Origin: an uncultured Pelagibacteraceae bacterium | GTDB lineage: Bacteria; Pseudomonadota; Alphaproteobacteria; Pelagibacterales; Pelagibacteraceae | NCBI GenBank assembly: GCA_902595725.1 | Contig: CACJRJ010000002.1 | Location: forward strand, 2,501-66,500 | Direction: 5' to 3' | DNA length: 64,000 nt | Shown: positions 41,009-45,987 of the stretch, piece after piece | Layout: each line of letters begins with the position of its first letter | How positions within the stretch are numbered: the first letter of the stretch is position 1 | Notes under the pieces: model-generated | What the model was told of the DNA's origin: nothing | What the model saw: only the letters and a program-made list of their open reading frames with translations | Databases searched by the model: none | Made by a program: the position numbers and the translations under genes

Positions 41009-41022
41009 GATAATTAATGATT

Positions 41023-41298
41023 CTAGAGCGTAAAACCTTCCTTTTTTAATAGTTTTTTCTTGATTTTTTTGCCTCCTGGAGCAGAAAAGCCACCGAGAGT
41101 TCCATCGGATCTAATAACCCTATGACATGGTACTTTAGGTGAATATGGGTTCTTCCCGCATGCATTAGCTACAGCACGTGCAGATTTAGGCATTTTTATT
41201 CCTATAGCTACTTCTTTATAAGTTTTTACTTTACCTTTTGGTATTTTCATAAGGTATTTCCAGACTTTTATTTGAAATTTTGTACCTTTTAGGATCAT
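41023..41298 (-). CDS. ogt: Minimal O6-methylguanine-DNA methyltransferase (C-terminal domain only)
   Basis: Start reassigned to ATG at 41298: MILKGTKFQIKVW..IPKGKVKTY..RAVANACGKNP..VPCHRVI. The catalytic Cys is present. Confidence 0.88.
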   Translation of the reverse strand: MILKGTKFQIKVWKYLMKIPKGKVKTYKEVAIGIKMPKSARAVANACGKNPYSPKVPCHRVIRSDGTLGGFSAPGGKKIKKKLLKKEGFTL

Positions 41299-41302
41299 GT
41301 AA

Positions 41303-41490
41303 TAGAAAAACCCTGTTCCCTTGCACTTTTTACGGTGCAAAGAACAGTAGTTTTGACACGTCGTTGTATGCGCTACCGCCATGTCTTCCGCTCTGCATGT
41401 TTAGCGCTGCTTTGCAGAACTTTCTGCCCCCTGGGCTTGAACCTCTCGGTTTTTCCCCAATCGGCCAGTTAAGAGTTGCCTCTTAATTCA
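41303..41490 (-). ncRNA. GC-rich structured RNA upstream of MGMT (candidate marine SAR11 sRNA, possibly IMES-2-like)
   Basis: GC spike in an AT-rich genome; GCAA and GAGA (GNRA) tetraloop hairpins and a G-U wobble on the - strand; terminal stem followed by a T tract; TTGACA at 41513-41508. Confidence 0.75.
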
Positions 41491-41550
41491 TTTTAAACAT
41501 TATCAGATGTCAAAGGTTGTATGTATCACTTTATTGTTGAATTTACTGAT

Positions 41551-41579
41551 TTTTTCACAACTGTGGATAGTGGGGAAAA
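41551..41579. promoter_or_regulatory. Cluster of DnaA-box-like 9-mers
   Basis: TTTTTCACA (fits TTWTNCACA), 2 bp, TGTGGATAG (1 mismatch, opposite strand), then TGGGGAAAA. Confidence 0.4.
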
Positions 41580-41585
41580 GTTAAA

Positions 41586-41750
41586 CTAAAACATTAAGAG
41601 TATCAGCAATACAAAAATGCTGATAAAAAATGCACCAAATATAAGCATTAATATCCTATTTTTGGTTTGTTCTTTTAATTTTGGCCAGTAATTCATTATT
41701 ATGAATGTTCCAATAACGACCAATAATCCAATTAATATATATTTTGGCAT
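41586..41750 (-). CDS. Small two-TM membrane protein (54 aa)
   Basis: Not in the ORF track. MPKYILIGLLVVIGTFIIMNYWPKLKEQTKNRILMLIFGAFFISIFVLLILLMF: two hydrophobic helices with a basic loop. Confidence 0.7.
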   Translation of the reverse strand: MPKYILIGLLVVIGTFIIMNYWPKLKEQTKNRILMLIFGAFFISIFVLLILLMF

Positions 41751-41816
41751 TTATATATAACAGATATTATTTACATCTATTATAATCAACAGATAAAAGG
41801 CCGCTTATCTTAACAT

Positions 41817-41993
41817 TTAGCGTGGAATCATCAAAATTATGTAACTTATGAAGAAGATAATAGCCATAATAGACAGAAAAATTGTGTTTATGCTTTTACC
41901 AGTATTTCTGTATTGAATTAAACTTAAAACAACAAAACCAATTGAGCTTATTAAAAACCATACTGCAGGAATTTCTCCATCAAATGAACCCAT
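41817..41993 (-). CDS. Small two-TM membrane protein (58 aa)
   Basis: ATG at 41993: MGSFDGEIPAVWFLISSIGFVVLSLIQYRNTGKSINTIFLSIMAIIFFISYIILMIPR. Confidence 0.65.
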   Translation of the reverse strand: MGSFDGEIPAVWFLISSIGFVVLSLIQYRNTGKSINTIFLSIMAIIFFISYIILMIPR

Positions 41994-42041
41994 AAATTTG
42001 TATTTTAATCTATTGACAATAAAAATCACCTAATATATAAC

Positions 42042-42066
42042 TTCCGATAATTAATGGTTATCGGAA
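42042..42066. other. lox/dif-like recombination site
   Basis: Perfect 9-bp inverted arms TTCCGATAA / TTATCGGAA around an asymmetric 7-bp spacer TTAATGG, 6 bp upstream of the recombinase ATG. Confidence 0.75.
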
Positions 42067-42072
42067 TATTTT

Positions 42073-42990
42073 ATGAATGAAATTGTAACAGACTTAAAAA
42101 GACTTGAATTAGAGACTTTAAAGAACCTAAAGAGTTCAAAGGCTCCTAATACTTTAAGAGCTTATCAAGCCGATTTTAAAGATTTTTCTTTATTTTGCTT
42201 AAAAAATGGCTTTAGTTCAATGCCCACAGAGCCTAAAATATTGGCATTATATCTAACTTTCTTATCAGCTACCTCTAAATTTAGCACTTTAAAGAGAAGA
42301 ATTGCCTCGATAAGCGTCATTCATCGTATAAAAGGGCATTATCTTGATATTAAACACCCAATAATAATGGAAAATTTACATGGAATAAAAAGGGTAAAAG
42401 GAACAGCTCAAAAATCAAAAAAACCCTTATTAATCAATAATTTAAAAAACATAATTAATGCTATAGATGAAAAAAAAATTCCTGAAAAAAAGAAATTTAG
42501 AGATAAAGCATTAATTCTTATTGGATTTTCAGGAGGATTTAGAAGATCCGAGTTAGTAAATATAGATTTTGATGACTTAGAATTTGTAAATGAAGGAGTA
42601 AAAATATTCATTAGGAGATCGAAAACAGATCAATCAGGAGAAGGTATGATTAAAGCTATCCCCTACTTTGAGAATAAAAAATTCTGCCCCGTAACAAAAT
42701 TAAAAGATTGGATTAATTATTCAAATATAAAATCAGGCAAAATATTTGAAATATCTGACAAAAGTGTATCATTAATAATAAAAAATTATGCATCATTTTC
42801 TGGATTAGATCCTAATAAATATGGAGGTCATAGTCTACGATCAGGTTTTGCGACCTCAGCAGCTGAATTTGGCGTAGAGGAAAGAAATATAATGGCAATG
42901 ACAGGTCACAAAACTACACAAATGGTAAGAAGATATATACAAGAAGCAAATTTATTTAAAAATAATGCACTAAATAAAATTAAGATTTGA
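42073..42990 (+). CDS. Tyrosine recombinase, Cre-like subfamily
   Basis: N-terminal core-binding domain (NTLRAYQADF) and full catalytic set: R (GFRRSEL), K (RSKTDQ), HxxR (GHSLRSG), H (MTGH), Y (VRRY). Confidence 0.93.
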   Translation: MNEIVTDLKRLELETLKNLKSSKAPNTLRAYQADFKDFSLFCLKNGFSSMPTEPKILALYLTFLSATSKFSTLKRRIASISVIHRIKGHYLDIKHPIIMENLHGIKRVKGTAQKSKKPLLINNLKNIINAIDEKKIPEKKKFRDKALILIGFSGGFRRSELVNIDFDDLEFVNEGVKIFIRRSKTDQSGEGMIKAIPYFENKKFCPVTKLKDWINYSNIKSGKIFEISDKSVSLIIKNYASFSGLDPNKYGGHSLRSGFATSAAEFGVEERNIMAMTGHKTTQMVRRYIQEANLFKNNALNKIKI

Positions 42991-43855
42991 AAACTTTTAT
43001 ATATAAAAGATTAATTTTGCAAATAAGGAAGCTAAAATAAAAAAAGAAATTTTTTTTAGGTTCATTTAAAGGTCCTAGATACTTATGTGTAAAAATTTTA
43101 TTATTTTTAAAATAATTACCATTTAAATAAAATTTTAAAAAAAAATTTATACTTATTCCCCACTTTTTTAAAAAAATATCAGAACCTCGATTTCTTTTTA
43201 GATTAATTTTTTTTCTTAGGCTAACAGAACCAAAATGGTAAACTCTACAATTAGATAAACCCTTAAATATTCTAACACCAGATATCCATAATTTCATATT
43301 TAAATCAGGGTCAGAACCAATGCCAGGATCAAATTCTTCACTTAATCCACCAACTTTTTTCCATGTATCTTTGTGAATTAATTGAGGACACCATGTAGTA
43401 CCTTGAAAATCATAATAATCGATTGAATTATACTCAGCTAAAAGTTTTTTTTCGTTAAAATCAGAAAAGTTACTTCCACAGTTAAGCTGTATATGGCCAC
43501 TTTTAGCTTCTATCATTGTTCCAGAAATTAAATACAAATTACTGTCTGTATTATCAATTTCTTTCTTTAAAAAAAAATCCCAATTAGGACAAAAATACAT
43601 ATCGTCATGAGCATAAACTATATAGTTTGTGCTAGATTTTTTTGCCGCTAAATTAACTGCAGTACACAATCCCACATTTTCTCTTGTATAAGTATAAGTA
43701 TATCTATTATTTTTAACATATTCTAACGTTCCATCAGATCCATCATTAACATGTAAAATGATTTCATGATCAAACTTTGAATTTTTTTTTATACTATCAA
43801 TACATATCTTAAGATAATCAATATTATTAAAAGTAGGAATAATAATTGAAAACAT
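42980..43855 (-). CDS. Glycosyltransferase family 2
   Basis: Start reassigned to ATG at 43855: MFSIIIPTFNN, HVNDGSDGT, AHDDMY, VGGLSEEF, YHFGSVS. Confidence 0.9.
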   Translation of the reverse strand: MFSIIIPTFNNIDYLKICIDSIKKNSKFDHEIILHVNDGSDGTLEYVKNNRYTYTYTRENVGLCTAVNLAAKKSSTNYIVYAHDDMYFCPNWDFFLKKEIDNTDSNLYLISGTMIEAKSGHIQLNCGSNFSDFNEKKLLAEYNSIDYYDFQGTTWCPQLIHKDTWKKVGGLSEEFDPGIGSDPDLNMKLWISGVRIFKGLSNCRVYHFGSVSLRKKINLKRNRGSDIFLKKWGISINFFLKFYLNGNYFKNNKIFTHKYLGPLNEPKKNFFFYFSFLICKINLLYIKVFKS

Positions 43856-45987
43856 TAATTTTTGTGCCAAATATATTTGGATTTAGATTTAATATTTAGC
43901 GTTTTATTAATAATAAATTCTGCAACTAAATTTGAATTAAAATATTTTAAATATTTAATCTTACCATTTTTACCAATGGATTTTCTTAATCTTTCATCTT
44001 TGCTTATTTTTGAAATTTTTTCAGCTAAATCAGATACATTAGAATAAAACACCATTTCTTTATCACTAAAAAAATCTTTATATCCAGTTTTCTCATCTAT
44101 TAAAGTTACTAGCCCATTACCAGCAATTTGGGTTAGTCTATCACTGCTATAATATTTTATTGGAGTTCCTCTGCTTAAATTTAATCCCATTTTAGAATTA
44201 GAAATAGTTTTAAAATATTGATCAGCCCATATTGGCTGGATATTATTCAAACCATATATGTCGAACTTAATGTCCTTTGATATATTCACTAACTTAGAGA
44301 TAAATTTCTCTCTATCATCATACGATCTAGACTTTAAGCTACCTCTATGAACGCCGTGACTTAGTGCAAAAAAAACATCATTTGAACAGTTTTTATTAAA
44401 ATTATTTAAAGTTTCAAACGATTGATCTGATGGGTTCGGAATAAAATAGTTTTGTACATTTTTTGGTAAAAACTTTAGTGCATCTGGGCTTGTTGTAATA
44501 AAATTTGAATCAATAAACTCCGATTTATCTAAAATTCTTTTTTTATTTTTTAGATAATCAGGCCCATTTTTATTTAATGGATCTAAAAACCATTGAGCAA
44601 TTTTTAAATATGGATATTCATCTTTAAGTTCACCCAACATATTTGGTGAAACTAAATCTGCATGCCCTAGTACTATTAAATCAGGCTTATAATTATAACA
44701 AGTTTTTCTTAATTTTTCATTTAAGGACTTACCACCAGTTATATCTGAATATGATTTATAATTTTTTTGAATATCCCTATCGCTAAATTCTAATACACTA
44801 TTACCCAATCTAATAAATCCATTATTAATTCTTCGACCTGTATTGAAAAATAATCTACCATTATGCCTTTCATTAAAATTTGTTATATGTAGAATTCTTA
44901 ATTTTTTCTTCTCAACATTAACATTGATATTCTTATTAAGAATTAGTTTTTCATCTCTTATCTTATCAATTAAATTTGATACAAACTTATGTGTTAAAAA
45001 AAAATTTTTTAAAGATAACTTTTGTAATTTATTCCTTTTTTGATCATTTAGTATTAATGAGTTAATTTCATTATATAAATTTTTAGTATCAACTTTTTTT
45101 AAAATTACAGCATTTGTTACAGTTTCTGGCAAACCTCCTCTATTACTTATAATTACAGCACAACCATTTGATGATGCTTCCAAACTAGTTCTGCCGAACG
45201 GCTCTTCCCATCTTGAACAAACAACTGCAATACTTGTTTTTTTATAAATGTTTAGAACTTTTTCATGCTTCAAAAAACCAAGTTTAAATAAGTTTTTATG
45301 ATTGAAATTTAATTTATCTCTCGGTTCATCACCAATAACAATCGAGCTCCATTTTTTATGCTTGTTTAATATTTTAATTATTGAATTTCCAAATATATCG
45401 AACCCCTTAGATCTGTTTAATTTACCAACAAAAGTTATAATATTTTTTTTCTTTTTTAGATTAATTTTACTTTTTTGAGCAGATTGATTTATAACTATTA
45501 ATTTTTCACTATTAATATAATCACTTTTCATTCCTTCAAGAAATCTTCTTTTTGACCAATTACTGTTAAAAATTATTTTAAAACAATTTTTTAGTAAAAA
45601 AATTCTTTCGTTTACAGTTTTTGACCCACTCATTGTGAGCGGATCGTTATGAAAATATAATAAATATGTTTTATTTTTTAATTCTTTTATTAAATAATTT
45701 AAGTAGATTGGTCTATTATGCAGCTCAATTAAATCTGAATTATTTTTTTTTTCCAATCTTATAAACTCTTCAACATATTTTTTATTTTGACTTTGAAATA
45801 AATTCTTTTTTAAATTAATATTTTTATATTTATGTTTAAATTTTTTTGTAAATTTAGTATTTCCATAAACAGTTGTATATTTTCTGTATTTGCTGATTTT
45901 TAAAGTTTCATTTATATTTAAAGAAACTGCACCTGCATATGTTGGTGAAAAATTTTCTTTATAAGGTAATAAAATTGATATTTTCAA
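43855..45987 (-). CDS. Two-module glycosyltransferase (GT4-like fused to a CgeB/Glyco_trans_1_2-like domain), TTG start
   Basis: SRWEEPFGRTSLEA..GCAVIISNRGGLPE in the N-terminal half; SKMGLNLSRG..YYSSDRL in the C-terminal half. Confidence 0.85.
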   Translation of the reverse strand: MKISILLPYKENFSPTYAGAVSLNINETLKISKYRKYTTVYGNTKFTKKFKHKYKNINLKKNLFQSQNKKYVEEFIRLEKKNNSDLIELHNRPIYLNYLIKELKNKTYLLYFHNDPLTMSGSKTVNERIFLLKNCFKIIFNSNWSKRRFLEGMKSDYINSEKLIVINQSAQKSKINLKKKKNIITFVGKLNRSKGFDIFGNSIIKILNKHKKWSSIVIGDEPRDKLNFNHKNLFKLGFLKHEKVLNIYKKTSIAVVCSRWEEPFGRTSLEASSNGCAVIISNRGGLPETVTNAVILKKVDTKNLYNEINSLILNDQKRNKLQKLSLKNFFLTHKFVSNLIDKIRDEKLILNKNINVNVEKKKLRILHITNFNERHNGRLFFNTGRRINNGFIRLGNSVLEFSDRDIQKNYKSYSDITGGKSLNEKLRKTCYNYKPDLIVLGHADLVSPNMLGELKDEYPYLKIAQWFLDPLNKNGPDYLKNKKRILDKSEFIDSNFITTSPDALKFLPKNVQNYFIPNPSDQSFETLNNFNKNCSNDVFFALSHGVHRGSLKSRSYDDREKFISKLVNISKDIKFDIYGLNNIQPIWADQYFKTISNSKMGLNLSRGTPIKYYSSDRLTQIAGNGLVTLIDEKTGYKDFFSDKEMVFYSNVSDLAEKISKISKDERLRKSIGKNGKIKYLKYFNSNLVAEFIINKTLNIKSKSKYIWHKN

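Follow-up and report, generated by a model that had tools for sequence, protein, structure and literature searches.

A Cre-like recombinase with its own lox-like site at the chromosome terminus of Pelagibacteraceae: a probable single-recombinase system for chromosome dimer resolution

The window analysed here is a stretch of 64,000 nucleotides from an uncultured Pelagibacteraceae bacterium (NCBI GenBank assembly GCA_902595725.1, contig CACJRJ010000002.1, positions 2,501 to 66,500 of the forward strand). It holds a tyrosine recombinase gene, P0001, and directly before it a perfect palindrome with an asymmetric centre. We propose that gene and palindrome together are probably a Cre/lox-type system of chromosome dimer resolution with a single recombinase, which in Pelagibacteraceae stands in place of XerC/XerD-dif, a proposal first made from the letters of the window alone (the sequence-only reading) and for which strong comparative evidence is the whole basis. 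The elements of the locus are listed below; the close loci referred to there and later are 80 loci at 72-87% protein identity, examined with 6-kb flanks.

42013-42018, plus strand: -35 hexamer TTGACA of the putative recombinase promoter, read from the sequence, with a function suggested by its conservation
42034-42041, plus strand: probable AT-rich -10-like box TATATAAC, which abuts the left arm; TATATA lies 15 nt and TATAAC 17 nt past the -35 hexamer
42042-42050, no strand assigned: left arm TTCCGATAA, read directly and invariant in 80/80 close loci
42051-42057, plus strand: asymmetric 7-bp central region TTAATGG, the presumed crossover region, which would give the site its direction
42058-42066, no strand assigned: right arm TTATCGGAA, a perfect inverted copy of the left arm
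42073-42990, plus strand: Cre-family tyrosine recombinase P0001, 305 aa (PF00589, E 2.8e-18)

Both parts of the proposal can be read directly and are as first described: a perfect 9-7-9 palindrome occupies positions 42042-42066, the six base pairs TATTTT follow, and the ATG at 42073 begins a frame that is open through its 305 codons. The window has a single occurrence of the arm pattern, against a shuffle expectation of 0.01; in the whole 1.08-Mb assembly (genome G000) the pattern is again unique, other matches carrying three arm mismatches, which is the chance level. The site is likewise single-copy in the complete genome G013. Two sets of further candidates were rejected, namely extra matches to GATAA-N7-TTATC in five loci, whose sequences are unrelated, and GATAATTAAT 10-mers in the flanks, whose frequency is about that of chance.

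Conservation of the palindrome, which the sequence-only reading had named as one of its tests, was found in every ortholog locus examined, in six genera. In the close loci the 25-bp core is nearly invariant and the bases just outside it vary freely. The centre is TTAATGG in 75 of the 80 (TTAAT[G/T]G across the six genera), the right arm is conserved except in three, which have TTATCGGTA, and the distance from site to ATG is fixed at 8-10 nt; the orientation of the centre relative to the gene is the same in all loci. The site exists in two forms. One, TTCCGATAA-TTAAT[G/T]G-TTATCGGAA, is present in five genera including part of Pelagibacter, and the other, a variant, reads ACTA[A/T]TGATAA-TTAATTG-TTATCA[A/T]TAGT. 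The proteins paired with the variant arms form one clade, at 97% support in the Shimodaira-Hasegawa-like approximate likelihood ratio test (SH-aLRT). This points to enzyme and arms having changed together, a single co-change with no statistic attached, pointing the way one would expect of an enzyme that reads the arms.

P0001 has the catalytic set R-K-H-R-(H/W)-Y and the two-domain clamp, and its translation contains the motifs RSKTDQ, GHSLRSGF and MTGH by which it had been called Cre-like at the outset. An exhaustive search of 1.8 billion representative proteins returned 2162 relatives at E<1e-30, those outside SAR11 being typically 37-50% identical over their full length. In an alignment of 112 of the relatives (A1), from which both the conservation of catalytic residues and a family profile were taken, R157, K184, H253, R256 and Y288 are invariant and H279 is present in at least 90%.

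Tested by sequence profile and predicted fold, P0001 is Cre-like rather than Xer-like, and the original label stands. Searched against the PDB, the family profile finds Cre at E 7.5e-36 (127 bits, positions 27-308), compared with 2.3e-20 (76 bits) for XerD, 1.1e-18 (71 bits) for XerA and 2.2e-7 for XerH. The AlphaFold2 model (predicted local distance difference test score 95.3, both domains) has Cre as all 28 of its best Foldseek matches, at template modelling scores of 0.77-0.81 against 0.69 for XerH, a comparison in which the solved Cre chains are all DNA-bound, favouring the match of a closed model. Aligned pairwise by BLASTP, P0001 and P1 Cre are 22% identical across both domains (E 8e-9). 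The NCBIfam scores are far below their cut-offs (XerD 62.9 against 329.6 bits, XerC 54.5 against 335.15, XerS 50.1 against 267, XerA 72.9 against 220), so that P0001 reaches neither the XerC nor the XerD equivalog score, nor does its homology place it in the XerS/XerH/XerA/XerL class. Kinship with XerL was tried by BLASTP against the Coxiella pQpH1 integrase CBUA0010 and gave nothing. Metatranscriptomes from four studies contain short contigs of low depth over parts of the open reading frame (ORF); as start, strand and true transcription cannot be inferred from them, they are not counted as evidence.

The arms of the site resemble those of lox sites. Taken as 13 bp (42038-42050, ATAACTTCCGATA), the left arm is identical at 11 of 13 positions to the loxP arm ATAACTTCGTATA of the P1 record. 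The validated SloxM1 site of the recombinase SCre is CTCGTGTCCGATA-ACTGTAAT-TATCGGACACGAG (PMC3082901), and TCCGATA is common to its arms and those of the window. SCre/SloxP of Shewanella sp. ANA-3 plasmid 1 and VCre/VloxP are Cre homologs that likewise have a palindromic site close to their gene; they differ from the window's system in being plasmid-borne with 13-8-13 sites, and the likeness drawn here is one of site and not of protein sequence. Several distant homologs of P0001 also have a palindrome of their own, a short way before the gene:

Marine alphaproteobacterium, homolog of 46% identity: TATTACTTCCGATAA-CATACAA-TTATCGGAAGTAATA, 4 bp from the ATG
Sporomusa, homolog in a prophage-like region: AACTTCCGATAA-TAGAACA-TTATCAGAAGTT
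Skermanella, plasmid homolog: ACTTCCGATAA and TTATCGGAAGT, 8 bp apart
Protochlamydia, plasmid homolog: ACGTTCGATAA and TTATCGAACGT, 7 bp apart
Rickettsiales, plasmid homolog: ATGTCCGACAA and TTGTCGGACAT, 6 bp apart

The Veillonella and Alicyclobacillus homolog loci have no palindrome directly upstream. Counted between 13-bp arms the spacer of the window is 9 bp and its equivalent in the homologs 8-10 bp, the lox-type layout being 8. A recombinase's own target would be expected to behave in this way, following the gene across phyla with its arms kept and its centre changed. The marine alphaproteobacterial homolog of the list lies in a chromosomal-looking context on a marine metagenome contig from the European Nucleotide Archive (L108:5964-6000, MarineAlpha5-type); its palindrome is a perfect 15-7-15 one, and arms and promoter layout are those of the window. 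Judging by this locus, the system may extend beyond Pelagibacteraceae.

The site lies between promoter and ATG. In nearly all ortholog loci, and in L108, TTGACA or TTGACT is found at an unchanged distance from it; the promoter was assigned from this conservation only, because a consensus scan made no call there, the 17-nt-spaced -10 hexamer having a C at position 6. With a recombinase on the site, the -10 box and the start of transcription would be covered, and the enzyme would thus likely repress its own gene. Could the palindrome be nothing else than such an operator, or a hairpin in the 5'-untranslated region, the enzyme having its real target and function elsewhere or having lost them? The position between promoter and ATG would suit either, an RNA hairpin followed by a U-rich stretch can be drawn, and a terminator scan flags the palindrome; Rfam has no known RNA family over it. 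Yet no second site exists in G000 or G013, and the centre, which would be the loop, is as conserved as the stem. A common variant keeps a fixed mismatch between its arms (ACTAATGATAA versus TTATCAATAGT), which is unfavourable for an RNA stem, and the same arms accompany homologs in distant phyla with differing centres of 6-8 bp. As the arms moreover resemble loxP and SloxM1 and all catalytic residues are kept, we consider a purely regulatory palindrome very unlikely.

The wider family of P0001 points to plasmids. Homologs at 34-42% identity are present in 2275 of 72,556 plasmid records, and at the four plasmid loci examined toxin-antitoxin genes adjoin in two and an upstream palindrome of the locus itself, with similar arms, is found in three. 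Homologs beside stability genes, with a palindrome of their own, are the mark of a plasmid multimer-resolution module; as the window's copy is chromosomal, such a module is its likely origin and not its present class. Cre, too, naturally serves multimer resolution in P1. In the tree all Pelagibacteraceae proteins form one clade with 99% support; closest to it stand three proteins, one marine alphaproteobacterial, one metagenomic and one from a Rickettsiales plasmid. Gene and site, as one module, were most likely recruited from a plasmid multimer-resolution module and captured once, in the ancestor of the family. Since the closest relatives beyond the family sit on plasmids or in prophage-like contexts, the locus could also be what is left, now fixed, of an integrated plasmid or element, an integrase with its att site and no present role in the host. 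We regard this as extremely improbable: an intact single-copy gene with all catalytic residues is kept across six genera at 60-87% identity, as one clade, with a 25-bp site that stays nearly invariant beside freely varying flanks, in genomes that are strongly streamlined and at a terminus position that is constant.

The distribution of the recombinase and that of the Xer system were compared within the order. Orthologs (E<=1e-98) are found in 254 of 280 Pelagibacteraceae genomes from the six genera, one per genome apart from a few split across contig ends, and the named relatives belong to Pelagibacteraceae and Candidatus Pelagibacter, including complete Arctic isolates. The sister family has no ortholog and gave only weak cross-matches of about 25% identity. 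With the XerD model (E<=1e-40), XerC/XerD-like genes were found in none of 211 Pelagibacteraceae genomes that are at least 90% complete, whereas among sister-family genomes of that completeness a XerD-like gene is present in 13 of 13 and a second, XerC-like gene in 12 of 13, the best-scoring model being XerD for one gene of the pair (308-325 bits) and XerC for the other (300-313 bits). A canonical 28-bp dif (11-6-11, with at most three mismatches) is absent from G000 and G013 and occurs once in each of three sister-family genomes checked (e.g. TTCGCATAATATATATTATGTAAAAT). P0001 is the only PF00589 match in G000, G013 likewise has one PF00589 gene, and in 4 of 5 high-quality Pelagibacter genomes the recombinase is the only one. 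Two conditions that would have refuted the sequence-only reading, a patchy distribution of the gene and a canonical XerCD/dif elsewhere, thus came out in its favour: the gene is single-copy and near-universal in the family, the 211 genomes gave no XerC/XerD-like gene, and G000 and G013 gave no canonical dif. We infer that XerC, XerD and dif were lost in Pelagibacteraceae and kept by the sister family.

Like a dif site, the site is single-copy, intergenic and placed at an inflection of GC skew opposite the origin. In G013 (1,343,202 bp, rebuilt from 68 pieces) the cumulative GC skew is maximal at 616-620 kb, the gene occupies 616,646-617,599, with the start of the site at 617,601-617,604; the minimum, at 1,291 kb, lies 50.2% of the circle from the maximum. 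In G216 (~1,013 kb) and G061 (~774 kb), complete genomes of two other genera that were sampled sparsely, the sign of the skew flips inside the 20-kb piece that bears the gene, and in the window's own contig the cumulative skew peaks within ~2 kb of the site. The terminus that had been suspected from converging gene orientation in the window therefore coincides with the skew inversion in three complete genomes. The orientation itself is as it was described: genes are on the plus strand to the left, except for a divergent module at 41023-42029, and on the minus strand from 42980 on, and in the 80 loci plus-strand genes likewise lie left of the site and minus-strand genes right of it. In at least 8 of the 80 loci blocks have swapped sides with their strand inverted, in symmetric inversions that have the site as pivot, a pattern expected at a terminus. 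Such side-swapped inverted blocks can be followed within one genus (L160, L162, L170, L187, L196, L206, L156 and L167).

Based on these data we propose the following course of events. A recombinase dimer would bind the two inverted arms of the single terminus site. When an odd number of crossovers between sister chromosomes yields a dimer with two directly repeated sites, FtsK, which is present in the genome with its gamma domain, would bring both sites together at the septum, and the tetramer would exchange strands, in order, across the asymmetric 7-bp TTAATGG to give two monomers. By analogy with Cre-loxP, the asymmetry of the centre would make the outcome a deletion, that is, resolution. 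The closest functional precedent is the engineered dif::loxP of E. coli, where chromosome dimers are resolved by Cre in a way that depends on FtsK translocation guided by FtsK orienting polar sequences (KOPS) but not on activation (PMC2680272). In the Pelagibacter strain HTCC1062 a gene annotated xerD rises with recA in light and under sulfur limitation (PMC3090418, PMC5069961). We presume it to be the ortholog of P0001, as these genomes typically hold only one such gene; the HTCC1062 ortholog is probably SAR11_1019.

Several observations weigh against the proposal. The placement of P1 Cre in the tree is unreliable, its branch being too long to use. The centre, 7 bp between GATAA and TTATC, measures 9 between 13-bp arms, where loxP has 8 and dif 6, a length that fits neither. 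GC skew and gene orientation are correlated and hence not fully independent markers of the terminus. No match was obtained in 26 of the 280 family genomes, including one that is 99% complete (G083, 20 contigs); since several matches sit at contig ends, the misses, which are mostly in fragmented assemblies, are probably due to assembly breaks. Finally, a 2026 preprint reports 'XerC and XerD' in Arctic Pelagibacter strains (10.64898/2026.10.07.757358). The family searches, covering the Uisw_106 and Uisw_114 loci and the 211-genome tally, gave no such genes in support of these names, which probably stem from automatic annotation. An earlier survey by Carnoy and Roten in 2009 listed P. ubique as being without a dif/Xer system, lost with other 'non-vital' systems (PMC2731167). 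The full-text literature that we searched, with most subscription journals outside its coverage, holds no description of the system proposed here.

A half-site made of left arm and centre occurs in eight related IMG/VR viral contigs (L208-L215), which are pelagiphage-like and to which, of the isolated phages, only two Pelagibacter phages are related. Each has an intergenic array of 2-4 half-sites with different arms (TTCCGATAA, ACTAGTGATAA, AACGATAA and ATTGATAA) that match host variants, each arm being followed by a centre of the TTAAT[G/T/A]G type. Two examples are

L210, 8695-8760: half-site array
L211, 300-440: half-site array

and a right-arm-like TTATCGGTAGTAAT lies ~45 nt upstream of each array. 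The contigs encode endolysin, RecE-like and other exonucleases, SSB and, in one case, a ParB-like partition protein; their available parts contain no P0001-like gene. Full sites of 23 nt and 22 nt have no exact match in IMG/VR viral contigs, a single right-half match (L216) is within chance expectation and was not used, and isolated phage genomes gave matches at chance level only (E>=0.2). Searching 401 family genomes with the DNA of L210 returned partial matches in ten, none of them adjacent to the site. In the window itself, GATAATTAATGATT at 41009-41022 (plus strand) abuts the stop codon of an MGMT-like gene and matches the inner left arm and centre, in the same orientation, at 13 of 14 positions. 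This 14-mer is absent from that place in 80 of 80 related loci and is identical to the fourth half-site of L211. It may be the scar of a past integration or a product of chance, for which we estimate odds of roughly 1-3%.

It is plausible that these viruses exploit the host enzyme for integration or for resolution of a plasmid-prophage. A further-reaching and tentative idea, which we hold to be possible and rather less than even, is that at least two co-evolved alleles of arm and enzyme exist, that pelagiphage-like viruses without a recombinase of this type carry arrays of half-sites, each fitting a different host allele, as 'master keys' to borrow the host enzyme, and that exploitation by phages drives the divergence of the site. 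The arrays raise the question of whether the recombinase mainly serves mobile DNA, by letting phages or plasmids integrate and excise at a host attB or by resolving plasmid-prophage multimers, its place at the terminus being secondary. Half-sites that match host variants in eight viral contigs lacking a recombinase gene in their available parts, the ParB-like protein of one of them, and the variable small ORFs that separate the MGMT-like gene from the site would all agree with this. It would, however, leave unexplained why XerC, XerD and dif are absent from exactly the family that bears the module and why the site is at the skew switch in three genera. No integrated phage copy lies by the site in the 401 genomes, the matches being 100-200 kb off or on other contigs, and mobile elements normally exploit true dif sites, as LME-1 does with XerL (PMC9765430), so that the viral arrays fit dimer resolution too. 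We therefore think a main role in mobile DNA unlikely and retain chromosome dimer resolution as the probable function.

Set beside known systems, the proposed one combines traits of several. With Cre/loxP it shares the best profile and fold match, the use of one enzyme, inverted arms and an asymmetric centre, the 11/13 arm, and the fact that Cre naturally resolves multimers of a circular replicon. It departs from Cre/loxP in protein identity (22%), in having a histidine (H279) before the tyrosine where Cre has tryptophan, in its centre of 9 instead of 8 bp, and in a site that is 6 bp from the ATG within the promoter region, loxP being ~430 bp away; the SAR11 system is moreover chromosomal, vertically inherited and at the terminus. 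XerS/difSL of streptococci and lactococci and XerH/difH of Helicobacter and Campylobacter are like it in that one recombinase, with an adjoining terminus site, replaces XerCD (PMC2731167; PMC5357621), but they belong to another recombinase family (XerS 50/267 bits; XerH 2e-7), and the SAR11 arms are perfectly symmetric and of different sequence. XerL/dif of Legionellales is a single-recombinase system in a group that was earlier said to be without dif/Xer, and resembles the SAR11 system in its perfectly symmetric arms, its position at the GC-skew maximum, its hijacking by a mobile element with a partial site and a link to a Coxiella plasmid (PMC9765430). The difference is that P0001 and Coxiella XerL have no detectable similarity, XerL has ~400 aa and the Legionella xerL is >400 kb from dif. 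To XerC/XerD-dif the system would correspond in task, and it does so in terminus position, the inner arm motif ATAA...TTAT and the presence of FtsK. There is, unlike in that system, one enzyme, far below the XerC and XerD cut-offs, and no 11-6-11 dif, and Cre needs no activation by FtsK gamma.

The neighbourhood of the site is free of phage and transposon genes, as had been noticed at first sight. To the left lie plus-strand genes for transporters and tRNA synthetases and then the minus-strand module of the MGMT-like gene with two micro-ORFs; to the right are minus-strand glycosyltransferases, glpX and a SbmA/BacA-like gene. Directly downstream of the recombinase, 42980-45987 (minus strand) encodes a GT2 and a 710-aa double GT1 glycosyltransferase. 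This slot is highly variable in the 80 loci, with many different clusters before a conserved block returns, and because the glycosyltransferase slot varies so much between genomes, we take it that a flexible surface-glycan island abuts the terminus site.

Structured RNAs are found close by. A full-length IMES-2 motif (RF02035; 158.8 bits, E 5e-43) lies at 41353-41493 on the minus strand, ~550 bp from the site, divergent from the recombinase and just upstream of the MGMT-like gene, and in 6 of 14 related loci (L010, L127, L140, L153, L160 and L181) it precedes the recombinase gene by 175-970 bp. Known as an orphan RNA of marine metagenomes, IMES-2 here gains a host and a fixed neighbourhood. 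An AdoCbl-II riboswitch (L140:10218-10299) and a SAM-V riboswitch (L196:11266-11332) both lie less than 6 kb from the site.

SAR11 bacteria are among the most abundant organisms on Earth, and they have apparently exchanged the two-enzyme XerCD-dif system for a module of one gene and one site, which fits the streamlining of their genomes. If this is true, the module is the natural counterpart of the laboratory replacement of dif by Cre-loxP in E. coli, and would represent a further independent origin of single-recombinase resolution after XerS, XerH, XerA and XerL, with its roots in the Cre clade and in plasmids. It would also explain the conserved 'XerD' annotation that rises with recA, and it offers SAR11 genomics a precise marker of the terminus. 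The homologs are a large pool of candidate Cre-type pairs of enzyme and site, with centres of 6-8 bp, which may serve as orthogonal tools, and the half-site arrays open an interaction between phage and host at the site that can be tested.

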